From assembly GCA_963785725.1 (NCBI GenBank), contig CAWAWS010000024.1, positions 6,937 to 70,936 of the forward strand: 64,000 nucleotides of DNA. Direction: 5' to 3'. Position numbers and translations under genes: made by a program. The notes below the pieces were generated by a model, which had not been told where the DNA came from, made no database searches, and saw only the letters and a list, made by a program, of their open reading frames with translations. Of this stretch, positions 34,877 through 40,964 are shown piece by piece. The number at the start of each line of letters is the position of its first letter. The first letter of the stretch is position 1. The stretch is from an uncultured delta proteobacterium (GTDB lineage Bacteria; Myxococcota_A; Polyangia; Palsa-1104).

Positions 34877-36307
34877 CTACTCTTCGATATCGGTGTCGCT
34901 GTCGGACAAGCCGTACTTGCGCAGCTTGCCGTGCAACGTCGCGCGGTTGATGCCGAGCTGACGCGCGGCGTGGCTGCGATTGCCGCGACTGGCCTCGAGC
35001 GCCGAGACGATGAGCCCGCGCTCGTAAGCGTCGATGCGATCTTTGAGCTCGAGCTGGCCGGCGCCTTCTTTGGCCGCGGCCGTCGCCGCGACGGGCGCGG
35101 TCGGCAGCGGGCCGGCTTGGCTGCCCGTCGTCTGCACGGTCGCCGCGTGCGCGTGCGGATTCGCCGACGGCAAGAGCGACAGGTCGAGCTCGCCTTGCGA
35201 CAGCGCGACGACGCTCTCGATCGCGTTCTCCAGCTCGCGAACATTGCCCGGCCACGAATATTGCGTCAGCCGCTCGAGCAAGGGCGGCGTCAGCTTGAAC
35301 GGCCCGACACCGAAGCGGCGCGAAAACTCGCTCAAGAAGTGCTTGGCCAGCACCGGAATGTCCTCGAGTCGTTCGCGCAGCGGGGCGATCTGCAGATGCA
35401 CGACTTTGAGGCGGTAATACAGATCCTCGCGGAACTTGCCTTCGTTCGCGAGCTGCAGGAGATCGCGATGCGTCGCGGCGATGATGCGCACGTCGACCTT
35501 GAAGACGCGATCCTCGCCGACGGGCCGCACTTCGCCCTCTTGCAGCACGCGCAAGAGCTTGGCTTGCGCGGCCGGCGCCAGCTCGCCGATCTCGTCGAGC
35601 AAGATCGTGCCGCCGTCGGCTTCGCGGAACAGGCCCGAGCGCGTCTTGACCGCGCCCGTGAACGCGCCTTTGGCGTGGCCGAACAGCTCCGCTTCGGCGA
35701 GCTCCGCGGTCAGCGCCGCGCAGTTGAAGCGCACGAACGGCTTCTCCGCGCGATGCGACGCCGACACCAGCGCCTCGGCCACGCGCTCTTTGCCGGTGCC
35801 GCTCTCGCCCGTCAACAGGACGGTCACGTCGCGCGGCGCGATGCGCTGCACCAGCACCGCCAGCTTGCTCATCGCCGGCGACTGGAAGATCAGCGAGCGC
35901 GACAGATGCAGCTCGCCCGACAGGCGCTCGACCTCGGCGCCCAAGCGCACCGCTTCCGTCGCGCGCCCGACGACCGCCATCAGCTCGGTCACCTCGAACG
36001 GCTTCTTGAAGTAGTCGAACGCGCCCGCCTTGATGGCGTCGACGGCGTGGCGCTCCGAGCCGTGCGCCGTGATCATGATCGTCTTCGGCTTCTTGCCCGG
36101 TCGATCGCGAATCGCCGCCAACAGCTCGAGGCCGTTCATGCGCGGCATCTGCAGATCGGTGATCACGATGTCGTATTCGCCCGCGTCCAGCTTCTCGAGC
36201 CCATCGACGCCATCGACCGCTTCGTCGACCGTCAGCTTGGCGTGCTCGAGGATTCCGCGGAGGGTGTAACGAACGGCCGAATCATCGTCGACGACGAGTG
36301 CGCGCAT
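34877..36307 (-). CDS. sigma-54-dependent response regulator (NtrC family)
   Basis: REC (ALVVDDD...IVITDLQMP), AAA+ with Walker A GESGTGKE and the GAFTGA loop, and a C-terminal Fis-type HTH (NRSHAARQLGINRATL). Confidence 0.92.
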   Translation of the reverse strand: MRALVVDDDSAVRYTLRGILEHAKLTVDEAVDGVDGLEKLDAGEYDIVITDLQMPRMNGLELLAAIRDRPGKKPKTIMITAHGSERHAVDAIKAGAFDYFKKPFEVTELMAVVGRATEAVRLGAEVERLSGELHLSRSLIFQSPAMSKLAVLVQRIAPRDVTVLLTGESGTGKERVAEALVSASHRAEKPFVRFNCAALTAELAEAELFGHAKGAFTGAVKTRSGLFREADGGTILLDEIGELAPAAQAKLLRVLQEGEVRPVGEDRVFKVDVRIIAATHRDLLQLANEGKFREDLYYRLKVVHLQIAPLRERLEDIPVLAKHFLSEFSRRFGVGPFKLTPPLLERLTQYSWPGNVRELENAIESVVALSQGELDLSLLPSANPHAHAATVQTTGSQAGPLPTAPVAATAAAKEGAGQLELKDRIDAYERGLIVSALEASRGNRSHAARQLGINRATLHGKLRKYGLSDSDTDIEE

Positions 36308-36331: not shown

Positions 36332-37615
36332 CTAGCAGAGCTCGCGGCCCGACTGATGCGGACACTGCACGAGCAGATCGACGTTCGCCGCCAAGCCGCC
36401 GCCTTTGCGATTCTCGAGCGAAATCGTGCCTTGCTGCTGGTCGACGAGCGCGCGGACGATGGTCAAGCCGAGCCCGCAGCCTTTGTCCTTCGTCGTGACG
36501 CCGGGCTGAAACAGCCGCTCGATCGCCTCCGGCGCCACGCCCGGACCGCGGTCGAGCACGCCGAGCCGCACGCGATCGGAGCTGCGCGACAAGGTCAGCT
36601 CGACCGTCCCACCGGCGGGGCTGGCGTCGATCGCGTTCTGCACGAGATTGACGACCACTTGCTTCAGCTTGCGCGGATCGCAGCGCGCTTCCACCGAGTC
36701 GACGGCGCTGGTGTCGAAGCCGATCTGCTTGTCGTTGGCGACGCCTTCGTGCAGGTCGACGACGTCGAGGATGAGGTGACGCAGATCGACCGTCTCCAAG
36801 GCCAGCCGCGACATCGGCCGCGAGAAATTGAGGAAGTGATCGAGCGCGCCATGCAGCCGCTCGACCTCTTTTTTCAGCACGGCCAGCCGCTCGGGCACGC
36901 GCTCGGGCTCGAGCTCCATCAGCGCCGCCAAGCCCTTGATGCTCGCCAGCGGGTTCTTGAGCTCGTGCGCCATCTCGGCGGAATACGTCGTCATTTCACG
37001 CATGCGCTCGACGTGCGTGTGCAAGAGCTCGTCGCGCGCTTCGTACGAGCGGCGGAAGATGGCGTCGGTGACGCTGCGAATGCGATGGCCGAGACCGTAG
37101 CCGGCGACGATGAGCGTCGACGAGCAGGACGCGAACAACAGCGTGTAGCTGCTGCTGCCGCCGGCGTTGAAGGCGCGCGGCATGATCCAGCCGCAATGCG
37201 CCAGCTGCAGCGCCGCCAACGTCCAGACGAACAGGACGCTCATGATCGTCGAGCCGAGCGCGAAGCGGCTCTCGAAGTAGACCGGCATGAAGACGGCGAC
37301 CATCAACATGCCGGGCGCGATCGGGCTGGCGAGACCGCCGCTGATCGTGACCAGCATGATCGCCGCCACCGAACGCAGCACGACGCGCTTGATGGCCGGC
37401 AACCGACCGGCGAGCCAGCTCACCATGATGAAGACGAGGCAGTGCGACAGCGCGGCGATGCGACGCCACGGCTCGATCTCGGGACCGAGCATCAGGTACA
37501 GCATCAAGACGCCCATCGCGGGCGCGGTCACCGCGGCGTGGGTCCAACGCGGCAGGCGAAAGATTTCGCGCATGGCCCCGTCGCGCAGCTCTTGAAGCTC
37601 GGTAGAAGCAGCCAT
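36332..37615 (-). CDS. membrane sensor histidine kinase (partner of the NtrC-like regulator)
   Basis: ATG 37615 (the track GTG 37663 is also possible). About 6 TM helices. H-box EMAHELKNPLASI. N/G boxes NLVQNAIDAS, DRGPGV and GCGLGL. Confidence 0.85.
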   Translation of the reverse strand: MAASTELQELRDGAMREIFRLPRWTHAAVTAPAMGVLMLYLMLGPEIEPWRRIAALSHCLVFIMVSWLAGRLPAIKRVVLRSVAAIMLVTISGGLASPIAPGMLMVAVFMPVYFESRFALGSTIMSVLFVWTLAALQLAHCGWIMPRAFNAGGSSSYTLLFASCSSTLIVAGYGLGHRIRSVTDAIFRRSYEARDELLHTHVERMREMTTYSAEMAHELKNPLASIKGLAALMELEPERVPERLAVLKKEVERLHGALDHFLNFSRPMSRLALETVDLRHLILDVVDLHEGVANDKQIGFDTSAVDSVEARCDPRKLKQVVVNLVQNAIDASPAGGTVELTLSRSSDRVRLGVLDRGPGVAPEAIERLFQPGVTTKDKGCGLGLTIVRALVDQQQGTISLENRKGGGLAANVDLLVQCPHQSGRELC

Positions 37616-37676
37616 CGTCGGCGCTCCCAGTGTACCCAAACCGTGCTGTGCTTGTCGAACCACGGCCGCTGCTACA

Positions 37677-37691
37677 GCAAGGGCGATACCA
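37677..37691 (-). promoter_or_regulatory. sigma-54 promoter-like sequence upstream of the kinase/NtrC operon
   Basis: Minus strand reads TGGTAT-cgccc-TTGC. GG and GC are at canonical spacing. It would place the TSS about 50 nt before ATG 37615. Confidence 0.35.
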
Positions 37692-37783: not shown

Positions 37784-37960
37784 TTATGTGGGTGGCGCTA
37801 GGCGCGGCGCCGGCCGTCGCCGTTTGCCGGCGAGGCTGAAGACGAGCGCCAAAGCACCGGGCGTGACGTAGACGCTGCGCGCCCAGGCGTAGATGCCGAG
37901 GTCGCCCGCGGCGGCGCCGATGCGAAAAAGCTCGCTATAGAACTGGCTCACGAAGTCCAT
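37784..37960 (-). CDS. possible 58-aa small membrane protein
   Basis: ATG 37960. High third-position GC. MDFVSQFYSELFRIGAAAGDLGIYAWARSVYVTPGALALVFSLAGKRRR. Confidence 0.3.
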   Translation of the reverse strand: MDFVSQFYSELFRIGAAAGDLGIYAWARSVYVTPGALALVFSLAGKRRRPAPRLAPPT

Positions 37961-38058
37961 CCGTTTTCCGTTCGCGCGCAAAGCAACGCGCGTGCCGGAC
38001 GCGCGCGGTGCCGCTGGGCGGACACGCGCACGCCCGCGCACCGGCAGAGCCCAGCGAC

Positions 38059-38072
38059 GGCACGCGCGTGCC
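38059..38072. promoter_or_regulatory. 14-bp perfect palindrome GGCACGCGCGTGCC (candidate enhancer-binding-protein site)
   Basis: About 165 nt upstream of the sigma-54 promoter match. Related GCGCG(G)TGCC copies at 37988-37996 and 38003-38012. Confidence 0.35.
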
Positions 38073-38223
38073 CTAACTCGGTGCACGACCAGGCGTTGCG
38101 GCGACGTGACCGAAGTTGCCCACCGTCGCGGTTTTGACCGTTGCGTCGGGTTTTTCACCAGCATTCGACAACGGCCGTCACCGCGAGCGAACCCGTTTTC
38201 CGCGGCCGCAGACGCTTTTGCGC

Positions 38224-38239
38224 TGGGCACGCGGCTTGC
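38224..38239 (+). promoter_or_regulatory. sigma-54 (RpoN) promoter candidate
   Basis: tgGGCACG-cggc-TTGCg against consensus TGGCACG-N4-TTGCW. GG at 38226-38227 and GC at 38238-38239 with exact spacing. It predicts a TSS near 38250, which favours ATG 38280 (GAGGAG 38268-38273). Confidence 0.6.
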
Positions 38240-38279
38240 GATGACAGTCGGTGAACCCGCGAAACTCGAGGAGCTGTTG

Positions 38280-39644
38280 ATGCGCCTTTTGTCTGGAGTG
38301 ATCTTGACCCTGTCGGCGATTGCCTTCGCTTACGCGGTCGATCCGTCCTTGTTCGCGCAGCTGCCCGTGCCGACGGCGGGTGGCTGGCTGCTGGGCGCGG
38401 GCGTCGTGCTGTTGGGGCTCGTGTGGCGCTGGCACAGCATGATGTTGCGCGCCGTCGCGCCGTACACCGGCGAGGCCGCGCATGCGTCGCGCTATCCGTC
38501 GGTCACGGTCATCCGCCCGGTGCGCGGCAAGGACGTGGGCGCGGAGGACAACTTCCGCGCCGCGCTCGACACCGGCTATCCGGGCGAGGTCGAGACGCTG
38601 TTCGTGTTCGACGACGAGAACGACCCCGGCCTGCCGCTCGCGCGGGAAGTGGTGGCCGCGCACATGGCCTCGGGCCGCGCCGGCACGGCCGGCGTCATCG
38701 TCGCCGGCGCACCGCCGGCCGGCTTCACCGGCAAGCTCAACGCGATGATCGCCGGCGAGCGCCGCGCCAAGAACGAGCTGATCGCGTTCGGCGACTCCGA
38801 CACGCGCCCGGACAAGAAGGTGCTGCGCGGCGTCGTCGATGCGCTGTTGTCGCGGCCGCGCGCCGGCTCGGCGTTCGCGCCCGTCCTCGTCTACCAGCCG
38901 GCGCAGTTCGCCGGCGACGCGCTCTACGCCTTCATGCAGAACTCGATGTACTCGCCGTTGGCCGCGCATGCGTCGGGCCCGTCGCGCACGCTGCCGTTCA
39001 TCATGGGTCAGCTGATGGTCTTCCGTCGCCAGGCGCTGGCTTCGATCGGCGGCGTGAGCGCGGCCAAGGGTCAGCTCGTCGACGACATGGCCATCGGTCG
39101 CGCGCTGCACGAAGCCGGCTGGGAGAACGTCATGAGCCGCAACCCGCTGCACATCGCCACCGGCGGCATGACCTTGCGCGAGTTCATCCCCATTTACCGT
39201 CGCTGGATGAGCTTCTCGAAGAATGGCCTGCCGCTGTCGTTCACGTGGCGTCAGTGGCTCGTCGGCGCGTCGTTCTTCGTCGCGCTGTTCCTGTCGCTGG
39301 GCGCGCTGGCGGTGGGCGGGGTGCGGGCGGCCGTGCCGTCGCTGGCGGCGCTGTTCCTCGTCGGCGACTCGCTCTTGCTCTTGCACAAGCGCTATGGCGG
39401 CTCGCCGATTCCGCTGCGTTTGGCGTGGGCGGCGTGGGGCGTCTTCCTCATCTCTCCCTATGTGCTGGCGACCAACCTCCTCAAGCGGAAGGTCGAATGG
39501 CGCGGGCGCAGCTACGAGCTGGCGCAGGGTGACGCGCTGGCGGCGATTCCGGCGCCGATGCACGCCGAGCCCGACCTTCTCGACCACGACGCCGACGAGC
39601 ATTGGCCCGCCGAGCGCCCCGCTCCGCAGCACTTGATCGCCTAA
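38280..39644 (+). CDS. GT2/GT21-type lipid glycosyltransferase (ceramide glucosyltransferase / HpnI-like)
   Basis: TM helices flank a cytoplasmic GT-A domain: VIRPVRGKD, DxD FGDSD, DDMAIG and the RRW motif (IYRRWMSF). An alternative ATG at 38241 would lie inside the promoter match. Confidence 0.8.
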   Translation: MRLLSGVILTLSAIAFAYAVDPSLFAQLPVPTAGGWLLGAGVVLLGLVWRWHSMMLRAVAPYTGEAAHASRYPSVTVIRPVRGKDVGAEDNFRAALDTGYPGEVETLFVFDDENDPGLPLAREVVAAHMASGRAGTAGVIVAGAPPAGFTGKLNAMIAGERRAKNELIAFGDSDTRPDKKVLRGVVDALLSRPRAGSAFAPVLVYQPAQFAGDALYAFMQNSMYSPLAAHASGPSRTLPFIMGQLMVFRRQALASIGGVSAAKGQLVDDMAIGRALHEAGWENVMSRNPLHIATGGMTLREFIPIYRRWMSFSKNGLPLSFTWRQWLVGASFFVALFLSLGALAVGGVRAAVPSLAALFLVGDSLLLLHKRYGGSPIPLRLAWAAWGVFLISPYVLATNLLKRKVEWRGRSYELAQGDALAAIPAPMHAEPDLLDHDADEHWPAERPAPQHLIA

Positions 39645-39671
39645 CCGCCACGTCGCTCTCGAGGTATCCCC

Positions 39672-40271
39672 ATGCGTCCTCTCATGCTCATCGTCTCGAT
39701 GCTCGTGTCACAGGCCGGCCCGCGCTATCAGCACGTCGGCGGCAACCATGCGGTCGAAGTCTTTCGGCAGATGGAGTCGCCGACGATCGACCTCGTGGCC
39801 GAAGGTGACATCGACGCGCCGCCGGCGCTGATTCGCAGCATTTTGCTCGACTATCCGAACGCGCACGCGCTCAGCGATCACGTGACCGAGAGCCGCGTCC
39901 TGACGACGGGCGCGCACGAGATCATGGTCTATCAGCGGCTGAAGCTGCCGGTGGTGAGCGACCGCGACTTCACGCTGCGCGCCTTGTGGGGCGCGCGCGG
40001 CGCCAACCTGTGGACGCGCTTCACCATCGACAACAGCCACGGTCCGGCGGCGCGCGACGGCATCGTCCGCTTGACCAACATGACCGGCGGCTGGGACTTG
40101 CAGCCGATTCGCGGCGGCGCGGCCACCCACGCCGTCTACCGCGTGCAGATGGACATGGCCGGCTCGATCCCGAAGTGGATGGTCTCGGGCGGCGCCGCCA
40201 AGGATCTGCCCAAGCTGTTCGACGGCATCCGCCGCGAGGTCGTCCGCCGCTCCGTCACCGCCAGCAATTGA
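39672..40271 (+). CDS. secreted START/SRPBCC lipid-binding domain protein
   Basis: GAGG then ATG 39672. Short signal MRPLMLIVSMLVSQA. START-like blocks LKLPVVSDRDFTLR, GIVRLTNMTGGWDLQP and MAGSIPKWMVSGGA. Confidence 0.72.
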   Translation: MRPLMLIVSMLVSQAGPRYQHVGGNHAVEVFRQMESPTIDLVAEGDIDAPPALIRSILLDYPNAHALSDHVTESRVLTTGAHEIMVYQRLKLPVVSDRDFTLRALWGARGANLWTRFTIDNSHGPAARDGIVRLTNMTGGWDLQPIRGGAATHAVYRVQMDMAGSIPKWMVSGGAAKDLPKLFDGIRREVVRRSVTASN

Positions 40272-40334: not shown

Positions 40335-40964
40335 ATGCGCCGCCGCGAGCGACTGTTCGCCATCACCGAGCACTTGCGCGGCCGCCGCAGCGGCGTGACG
40401 GCCGAGACGCTGGCGGCGCGCTTCAACGTCACCGTGCGCACGATCTATCGCGACCTCGACAGCTTGCGCGACGCGGAGCTGCCGGTGAAGGCCGAGCGCG
40501 GCGCCGGCGGCGGTTACGCGCTCGATCGCGCCTACACGCTGCCGCCGGTGAACTTCACGCCGCGCGAGGCGGCGCTGCTGGTCGCGCTCGGTCGTTGGGC
40601 GGCGGAGCTGCGCATCCTGCCGTTCGTCGAGACGCTGGCCGGCGCGCTCGACAAAGTGCGCGGCGCGCTGGGCGCATCGGCGCAGCGCGAGCTCGTCGAG
40701 CACATCGACTCCATTCAGTTCGTCGGCGTGCCGGCGCTGGGCGCGTCGCCGGCGATTCGCGCGGCCATCGAGTCGGCGTGGTTCGAGCGGCAGCCGATCC
40801 GCATTCGTTATCGCGGCGCCGACGACATCGTGTCGACACGCGTCGTACGGCTGGTGACGGTGGTGATGGAGCGCAGCCTCACCCTCCTCAACTGCGACGA
40901 TCTCGACAAGGGTGAGCGACGGCAGTTTCGGCTCGATCGCATCCTGGACGCCCAGCTCGTCTGA
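40335..40964 (+). CDS. YafY-family transcriptional regulator (HTH + WYL domain)
   Basis: HTH LAARFNVTVRTIYRDLDSL. WYL-like C-terminal region (IRIRYRGADDIVSTRVV...RQFRLDRI). Confidence 0.8.
   Translation: MRRRERLFAITEHLRGRRSGVTAETLAARFNVTVRTIYRDLDSLRDAELPVKAERGAGGGYALDRAYTLPPVNFTPREAALLVALGRWAAELRILPFVETLAGALDKVRGALGASAQRELVEHIDSIQFVGVPALGASPAIRAAIESAWFERQPIRIRYRGADDIVSTRVVRLVTVVMERSLTLLNCDDLDKGERRQFRLDRILDAQLV

Follow-up and report, generated by a model that had tools for sequence, protein, structure and literature searches.

The eukaryotic glucosylceramide synthase UGCG (CAZy family GT21; PDB 26qf) is a membrane-embedded enzyme, and the GT21-like HpnI (model TIGR03472), a bacteriohopanetetrol N-acetylglucosaminyltransferase, uses a cyclic triterpenoid as acceptor and is often encoded beside the RND exporter HpnN. 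Pgt is a further enzyme that we take to belong to CAZy GT21. In Agrobacterium tumefaciens and Mesorhizobium loti, it is a processive glycosyl-diacylglycerol synthase that makes stress-induced membrane glycolipids (PMC3972451). Here we analyze a locus in the window, a 64,000-nucleotide (nt) stretch of contig C24 from the 8.9-Mb metagenome-assembled genome (MAG; 88% complete) of an uncultured soil myxobacterium of the class Polyangia. In this locus, a gene for a GT21-family glycosyltransferase (P0002) is followed by one for a START-domain protein (P0001), and both are apparently read from a sigma-54 promoter. The same genome carries a complete-looking sterol cluster and four such glycosyltransferase (GT)/START gene pairs. 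On balance, we favor the view that the locus is a sigma-54-dependent membrane-glycolipid module. Coordinates are in window numbering unless the code of a contig of this genome (C), a locus (L) or a genome (G) is given.

Compared with the systems above, P0002 belongs to the same Pfam family as UGCG, is homologous to it over nearly the full length, has its DSD/VDD/RRW motifs and is likewise predicted to be membrane-embedded. By contrast, P0002 has two N-terminal transmembrane (TM) segments, its gene is paired with a START gene and seems to be under sigma-54 control, and its genome has no recognizable ceramide pathway. The locus differs from that of HpnI in that the partner is a START protein and not HpnN and in that the genome holds no SHC-type cyclase, while one family member (L113) does adjoin an HpnN-like gene. 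Pgt, which can be compared by description, is PhoB-regulated and has neither a START nor a GH38 partner, whereas P0002 is START-paired and probably sigma-54-driven.

For the START protein, the described counterparts are the Xanthomonas protein 3QSZ, StAR/STARD1, STARD4, PCTP, STARD10 and CERT, whose fold is the same as that predicted for P0001 (TM-score 0.71-0.78). It differs from them in being bacterial, in having one domain and probably an export signal, and in being encoded with a glycosyltransferase, at 14-20% identity. Proposed periplasmic triterpenoid shuttles are BstB/BstC for sterols in Methylococcus (PMC10942540) and HpnM/HpnT for hopanoids (PMC12324291). The job proposed for these is the one we propose for P0001, i.e. 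that of a soluble carrier of a rigid lipid between membranes, encoded near pathway or transporter genes. However, their folds are unrelated (substrate-binding-protein-like, MlaC-like, and lipocalin-like), none is a START protein and none is paired with a glycosyltransferase. As for regulation, the neighboring activator aligns over its full length with the NtrC, AtoC, and ZraR models, ZraS and AtoS are the best-matching models of the kinase, and the divergent promoter layout is similar to that of NtrB/NtrC systems such as ZraSR and AtoSC. All of these scores nevertheless lie under the equivalog cut-offs, the sensor is a multi-TM domain without a Pfam match, and two additional kinase paralogues are found as orphans at other GT loci.

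A GT21-family glycosyltransferase and its START partner

The preliminary description of this DNA had read a GT21-like lipid glycosyltransferase from the motifs VRGKD, DSD, DDMAIG, and RRW, followed after 27 nt by a START gene. All four motifs are present (as RPVRGKD, FGDSDTRPD, LVDDMAIG, and YRRWM), and classification with hidden Markov models agrees with the family. Specifically, P0002 matches PF13506 (Glyco_transf_21) with 86.8 bits against a cut-off of 21.7 (E 1.6e-24) and misses the HpnI model TIGR03472, which is its best NCBIfam match and aligns end to end, with 104.2 bits against an equivalog cut-off of 310. A profile built from 20 homologues aligns over positions 17-392 to residues 14-383 of human ceramide glucosyltransferase (26qf; E 1.3e-17). 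Residues R79-G83, D85, D172-D178, D268-M270, and W309 are invariant across these homologues and R307 and R308 nearly so, while K84, A271, and I272 vary; we take the RPVRGxD, DSD, DD, and RRW residues to be the D1, D2, D3, and RxxRW motifs of the glucosylceramide synthase literature. Hydropathy gives two N-terminal and about three C-terminal TM segments. Together, these comparisons strongly support P0002 as a GT21-family integral membrane glycosyltransferase and a full-length homologue of glucosylceramide synthase. The automatic JGI name of the homologues, "ceramide glucosyltransferase," is a family label only and not a functional assignment.

The open reading frame (ORF) of the glycosyltransferase begins at the ATG at 38280 (not 38281), preceded by a GAGGAG Shine-Dalgarno sequence, and ends at 39644. 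Its stop codon occupies 39642-39644 and the START ATG lies at 39672, which confirms the 27-nt gap; no terminator-like site was found between the two genes.

Scanned against Pfam as a single sequence, P0001 yields only sub-threshold Polyketide_cyc matches. A profile of 43 homologues, searched against the PDB, recovers 3QSZ (E 5e-15), PCTP (5e-7), STARD13 (2e-6), and STARD10 (9e-6), and also STARD4. Several to many of the homologues carry a precomputed PF01852 assignment, and NCBI names one of them START domain-containing protein. The AlphaFold2 model (mean predicted local distance difference test score 90.9) combines a beta-sheet with a C-terminal helix at residues 168-198, i.e. the helix-grip fold with a long C-terminal helix over the cavity. 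In a Foldseek search with this model, the top 36 matches are all START structures (3QSZ, STARD10, StAR, PCTP, STARD4, STARD3, and CERT) and rank ahead of other SRPBCC folds. D60, R89, R98, D99, R133, and Y156 are invariant polar residues of the START protein. The START identity proposed earlier thus stands, and profile and model make a solid case for P0001 as a true START-fold protein and predicted lipid binder. In 41 of the 43 homologues, the N-terminus has a hydrophobic stretch of 9-13 residues without cysteine, followed by small residues. It resembles a short Sec signal, which makes export plausible and would place the START protein in the periplasm.

The glycosyltransferase and START genes recur together. 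Four pairs are present in this genome, on contigs C24 (the window), C29, C3, and C39. Identities among the glycosyltransferases are 68% for C24-C29, 77% for C3-C39 and 61-67% across these groups; for the START proteins, the corresponding values are 64%, 55%, and 45-52%. Because (C24, C29) and (C3, C39) group alike in both families, the pairs were duplicated as units. Among 41 related genomes, about 17 of 21 strong matches to the glycosyltransferase have a START gene within 4 kb, so that the functional link between the two genes suggested by the preliminary description holds up in relatives. Three gene orders occur (GT-START, START-GT, and GT divergent from GH38-START), and in the glycosyltransferase tree, START-adjacent members, members with GH38+START, and those of the Myxococcaceae form separate clades. 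For example, the two genes are likewise adjacent at the orthologous locus (L020/L024), a distant Myxococcota genome has a START-GT operon with a divergent sigma-54 activator (L114), and L094 has START-GH38 and START-GT-activator units. These patterns strongly support the two genes as evolutionary partners that were co-duplicated.

A GH38 glycosidase gene is the frequent third partner. In this genome, a fifth START gene lies 1 nt from a GH38 gene and is translationally coupled to it (C24:216309-219846 for the two genes). Four relatives (G004, G003, G010, and G017) have a divergent glycosyltransferase gene between the GH38 gene and an RpiA-like gene; none stands at the corresponding place here (C24:216309-220582), where it has apparently been lost. 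The transferred sugar may be mannose, because mannose-nucleotide genes occur at some loci (ManC in L053 and PMM at C3).

Several further observations concern these loci. An intact fifth glycosyltransferase paralogue (C5:35973-37103) has nothing informative in its surroundings. A sixth GT21 copy 17 kb away (C5:54064-55129) is split over three frames and is likely a pseudogene; it lies 5 kb from another NtrC-type activator. At L094, a patatin-like phospholipase gene (L094:13748-14980) is found a few kb from the START-GH38/START-GT-activator locus, a possible link to lipid remodeling. A conserved protein of 462-482 amino acids (aa) (C3:112169-113569 and L019:4691-6139; 59% identity) is encoded beside START/GT genes and a PGM/PMM gene. 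We had suspected this C3/L027 neighbor (462 aa) to be PMI-like and dropped the idea, because Pfam, NCBIfam, and PDB searches all came back empty for it; the only likeness, seen by eye, is that of a short stretch to the phosphomannose-isomerase motif LPxLxKxL.

Probable sigma-54 promoters and the adjoining two-component system

A near-consensus -24/-12 element had been noted directly upstream of the glycosyltransferase gene, and its sequence, spacing, and coordinates are borne out. Positions 38224-38239 read TGGGCACGCGGCTTGC, with GG at 38226-38227 and GC at 38238-38239 in canonical spacing. The GGCACG-N4-TTGC element (38226-38239) has two mismatches to TGGCACG-N4-TTGCW and ends 40 nt before the ATG. 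As such, GGGCACGCGGCTTGCG has the features of a sigma-54 promoter, i.e. GG and GC 10 nt apart, likeness to TGGCAC-N5-TTGC and a suitable distance to the gene. Judged on the window alone, the match is not beyond chance: three exact GGCAC-N5-TTGC sites are present where 0.95 would be expected, a count also reached in 7 of 100 shuffles. Two of the three share one 616-bp intergenic region and point outwards.

The whole 8.9-Mb genome, however, contains only 63 exact sites, and four of them fall within the 350-nt upstream regions of the eight paralogous GT/START genes (Poisson P ~4e-10). These lie directly upstream of the glycosyltransferase genes at C24, C29, and C39 and of the START gene at C39. 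The C3 pair has one-mismatch elements, GGCCCG-N4-TTGC before the START gene and GGCACG-N4-ATGC before the glycosyltransferase gene, so that each of the four pairs carries a -24/-12 element. In other genomes, GGCAC- or GGTAC-N5-TTGC stands upstream of the glycosyltransferase gene in L024, L025, L027, and L030, and L094 has CGGCACG-N4-TTGCT upstream of both the START gene and the glycosyltransferase gene, with the one-mismatch CGGCGCG-N4-TTGCT upstream of its GH38-START unit. Because the element is enriched genome-wide at the paralogous genes, it appears to be more than a chance match. The genome also has rpoN (364 bits against a cut-off of 277). This gene (C20:359483-360935) matches its model in two adjacent frames (model positions 1-391 and 390-434), which suggests a frameshift or an assembly error near its 3' end.

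Upstream of the element, a clear shared block is limited to the C24 and C29 promoters. Its 9-mer CGGTTTTGA is present at both and has 33 copies in the genome; the 9-mer GTTTTCACC from the other half is intact at C29, has one extra T at C24, and occurs 21 times in the genome, so that both words are rare. At C3, the START-GT intergenic region (C3:107900-108400) contains about eight tandem copies of a unit of about 25 nt (CCGGAATCGATCGTCTGCGGACCTG-like), upstream of that glycosyltransferase's own -24/-12 element.

The kinase gene next to the pair encodes about 5-6 TM segments without a large periplasmic loop. In this genome, its two nearest paralogues (47% and 40% identical) are oriented divergently to the glycosyltransferase genes at C29 and C39, and no close activator paralogue was found at these two loci. 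Orthologues of the activator (75-76% identity) adjoin glycosyltransferase paralogues at three other MAG loci (L019/L027, L021/L030, and L026), and other sigma-54 activators adjoin the glycosyltransferase gene in L094, in L114 (from a distant Myxococcota family), and in an Acidobacteriota MAG (L043) and a Planctomycetota MAG (L064). Comparison of promoters and gene neighborhoods thus strongly supports the conservation of -24/-12 promoters at GT/START pairs and the recurrent presence of NtrC-type activators and membrane-embedded histidine kinases beside them, in line with the enhancer-dependent control proposed in the preliminary description. The neighboring NtrC-type activator is the likely regulator of the GT/START unit, and we infer that signals from several kinases converge on this single activator, which would control all four pairs of the genome.

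Between the kinase and glycosyltransferase genes, a second, divergent -24/-12 element precedes a small ORF whose product (MDFVSQFYSELFRIGAAAGDLGIYAW...) has one predicted TM segment and no Pfam match. Loose homologues are found at the orthologous locus of a MAG of the same genus (39% identity over 41 aa) and beside the C39 START gene, and the small protein could be a membrane modulator of the kinase.

In the mechanism we propose, the kinase would sense the state of the membrane through its multi-TM domain and phosphorylate the activator, which would then open RpoN-holoenzyme complexes at the divergent promoters in 37982-38240. The activator's targets would probably also include the promoters at C29, C3, and C39, where two of the pairs come with a kinase but none with its own activator. 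On the cytoplasmic side of the inner membrane, P0002 would use a nucleotide sugar to attach a hexose to the hydroxyl of a membrane lipid. This lipid or its glycoside would be bound by the START protein, which probably leaves the cytoplasm by way of its short N-terminal signal and would shuttle its cargo through the periplasm, toward or away from the outer membrane. The cytoplasmic GH38 glycosidase, whose copy in this genome stands with the fifth START gene, may strip the sugar off again.

Features of the proposed GT/START module and its surroundings, in window coordinates
Feature	Position	Strand	Basis
Proposed transcription unit: sigma-54 promoter, GT21 gene, and START gene	38225..40271	+	27-nt gap, no terminator-like site
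GT21-family membrane glycosyltransferase gene, 454 aa (P0002)	38280..39644	+	PF13506, profile alignment, motifs
START-domain protein gene, 199 aa (P0001), short hydrophobic N-terminus	39672..40271	+	Profile, AlphaFold2, Foldseek
Putative -24/-12 sigma-54 promoter element GGGCACGCGGCTTGCG, predicted transcription start site ~38250	38225..38240	+	Motif and equivalents at paralogues and orthologues
Upstream block GTCGCGGTTTTGACCG...GTTTTTCACCAGC, candidate activator or integration host factor (IHF) site	38125..38162	+	Common to C29 paralogue promoter, same distance
Perfect 14-bp palindrome GGCACGCGCGTGCC, candidate activator binding site	38060..38073	.	Sits between the divergent promoters
Second, divergent -24/-12 element CGGCACGCGCGTTGCT, one mismatch to consensus	37982..37997	-	Motif scan
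ORF of 58-aa small membrane protein	37784..37960	-	Starts 22 nt past the divergent promoter
Weaker sigma-54-like element TGGTATCGCCCTTGC, directly before kinase gene	37677..37691	-	Read in the sequence
Sensor histidine kinase gene, ~5-6 TM segments	36332..37663	-	HisKA and HATPase_c
NtrC-type response regulator/sigma-54 activator gene	34877..36307	-	Receiver, AAA+ with GAFTGA, HTH_8

The WYL regulator gene downstream of the START gene (40335-40964) was considered as a member of the module and rejected, because the orthologous locus is without it.

Acceptor lipid and rival readings

The preliminary description had named sphingolipids and hopanoids among the possible acceptors, and neither fits this genome well. 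A hopanoid is unlikely because the only cyclase is of the oxidosqualene cyclase (OSC) type, with none of the SHC type; the HpnI score is also far under its cut-off. For sphingolipids, the genome has only two alpha-oxoamine synthases, whose best models are Kbl (433/460) and BioF (403/426) and which reach 258-290 on the Spt models against cut-offs of 500-640. A sphingolipid acceptor is therefore unlikely as well, with no recognizable serine palmitoyltransferase; given 88% completeness, that absence is not proven.

By contrast, sterols are within the reach of the organism. Its single cyclase has the motif VSDCTAE, which we take to be of the oxidosqualene-cyclase type, and lies within a sterol cluster (C9:1245-16400). 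This cluster also encodes an SdmA-like Rieske oxygenase (NF052579, 406 bits), two 3beta-HSD-like proteins, a sterol C-24 methyltransferase (Sterol_MT_C), an ERG4/ERG24 reductase, and a member of the geranylgeranyl-reductase family, a gene content from which the organism probably makes side-chain-methylated sterols. In 14 Myxococcaceae loci of cultured Myxococcus and Corallococcus species, including those of Corallococcus coralloides and Myxococcus eversor, a sister clade of the glycosyltransferase sits inside the sterol gene cluster, in the order HMG-CoA reductase - MMPL (MmpL3-like) - GT21 - squalene epoxidase - squalene synthase - cyclase (with the glycosyltransferase gene at 7001-8020 in L070 and L083). 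We found no description of this cluster with GT21 and MMPL in the literature that we searched. In a genome of the same genus (G002), a kinase-GT-GH38-START locus has sterol-cluster genes (GGR-like and SdmB-like) at a distance of 3.7 kb. Joining the sterol-cluster end of contig C9 to the GH38-START end of C24 on the strength of G002 synteny was tried and is not supported.

Several points weigh against a sterol acceptor, and a few against the module as a whole. The sterol-cluster clade is 45-49% identical to P0002 and pairs with MMPL and not with START. Of 20 genomes with a member of the glycosyltransferase family, 12 have no squalene/oxidosqualene cyclase at E<=1e-20, some of them near-complete; one cyclase-free genome (G070) nevertheless has a START-GT operon with a divergent sigma-54 activator, and in another (G266) the glycosyltransferase gene lies beside an HpnN-like exporter. 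The family is sparse in the phylum (11 of 301 genomes), and this wider set argues against an obligate sterol link. Within the order, co-occurrence of glycosyltransferase and cyclase is uninformative because cyclases are near-universal there (35 of 41 genomes). No lipid-biosynthesis gene was found beside any of the four pairs of this genome, and a k-mer count across 11 promoters found no common upstream activator motif, only GC-rich words. Because the sterol-cluster sister clade is offset by the cyclase-free genomes of the family, we divide the acceptor about evenly into thirds: the organism's own sterol, our single best guess; diacylglycerol; and something else. The complete version of the sterol reading, in which this GT21 family would glycosylate bacterial sterols and the START partners would carry the sterol or steryl glycoside through the periplasm, is by our estimate quite unlikely.

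Other readings of the enzyme must be set beside the module. P0002 could be a glycosyl-diacylglycerol synthase like Pgt that adds at least one hexose to diacylglycerol, yielding phosphorus-free stress glycolipids that the START protein moves, with sterols uninvolved. Pgt is the most comparable processive bacterial lipid glycosyltransferase, acts on diacylglycerol (and ceramide), and is induced by phosphate limitation (PMC3972451). Moreover, glycerolipid binders (PCTP and STARD10) are among the nearest folds of P0001. Diacylglycerol is universal and would therefore account for family members and START-GT-activator loci in cyclase-free genomes. This reading nevertheless leaves the sister clade inside the Myxococcaceae sterol cluster unexplained, no Pho-type regulation is seen, and the likeness to Pgt is drawn from its published description; it is possible, though we are inclined to doubt it. 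It is very improbable that P0002 makes oligo- or polysaccharides processively, like NodC or PgaC, and that the START-like protein has a nonlipid role. The C-terminal TM bundle, weaker Glyco_trans_2_3 and Glyco_tranf_2_3 matches (45 bits), a distant PgaC match, the GH38 partner, and the mannose-nucleotide genes near some loci would suit such an enzyme, but the GT21 model scores about twice as high (86.8 vs 45 bits), the alignment with UGCG is full-length and the partner has a true START lipid-binding fold. In addition, MMPL or HpnN-like lipid exporters take the place of START in other clades.

Two further alternatives leave the enzyme family as it is and change the site of action or the promoter. 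The START protein may work at the cytoplasmic face as a substrate-presenting activator and not as a periplasmic shuttle: its short hydrophobic N-terminus would anchor it, and it would lift the lipid or glycolipid from the inner leaflet for the glycosyltransferase and the soluble GH38 enzyme. Saposin-type activator proteins aid lysosomal glycosidases in a similar manner. The GH38 partner has no signal peptide and is translationally coupled to START, the n-region of the START homologues is often uncharged, with few positive charges, and, judging from UGCG, the catalytic domain of GT21 enzymes should face the cytoplasm. These points count against export, but 9-13 residues do not suffice for a TM anchor and are what a cleavable signal typically has, and the nearest solved bacterial START protein (3QSZ) was crystallized as fragment 25-204, which fits a removed leader; we regard a cytoplasmic START protein as unlikely. 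Finally, the -24/-12 match could be fortuitous and the operon read from a sigma-70-type promoter. The window count, which does not exceed chance, leaves room for this, as does the search for RNA runs containing the sequence, which returned only soil DNA metagenome runs and thus none in which the transcription start site could be sought. However, the element is kept at paralogues and orthologues far beyond chance, activators are syntenic, and no sigma-70-like site was found upstream of the glycosyltransferase gene, which makes a fortuitous match extremely improbable. We therefore return to the sigma-54-dependent membrane-glycolipid module as the reading that we prefer.

Novelty and biological meaning

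Taken singly, GT21 enzymes, START folds, and NtrC-type control are already known. The conserved pairing of GT21 with START, the frequent GH38 partner, the dedicated sigma-54 circuit, and the fourfold expansion appear to be new: the literature searched yielded none of these four, and neither a GT21 enzyme in myxobacterial sterol clusters nor a bacterial START-GT pair. Beyond the preliminary description, the analysis adds sterol as a candidate, a GH38 partner, a divergent second sigma-54 promoter followed by a small ORF, and the existence of four paralogous pairs.

Proteins that regulate, transport, or modify bacterial sterols have been described as largely unknown (PMC12004948). If true, the sterol reading would provide the first START-based sterol trafficking system in bacteria, with its own membrane-sensing sigma-54 circuit. 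The phylum has been proposed as the source of eukaryotic sterol synthesis, and StAR-type sterol handling might, on the same condition, have a myxobacterial relative. An uncultured member of the Polyangia with a sterol cluster is also relevant to sterol biomarker work. The question of bacterial sterol glycosylation is directly approachable in cultured, tractable relatives that have the sister glycosyltransferase in their sterol cluster, such as C. coralloides and M. eversor. Should diacylglycerol be the acceptor, the module would still represent a novel type of stress-regulated envelope-lipid remodeling, and its fourfold expansion in one genome would call for an explanation.

To our knowledge, bacterial START proteins have almost no assigned functions. 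The recurrent, co-duplicating set described here, i.e. a GT21 glycosyltransferase, a START protein, often a GH38 glycosidase, and a sigma-54 two-component system, gives START a lipid-handling context in diderm bacteria.

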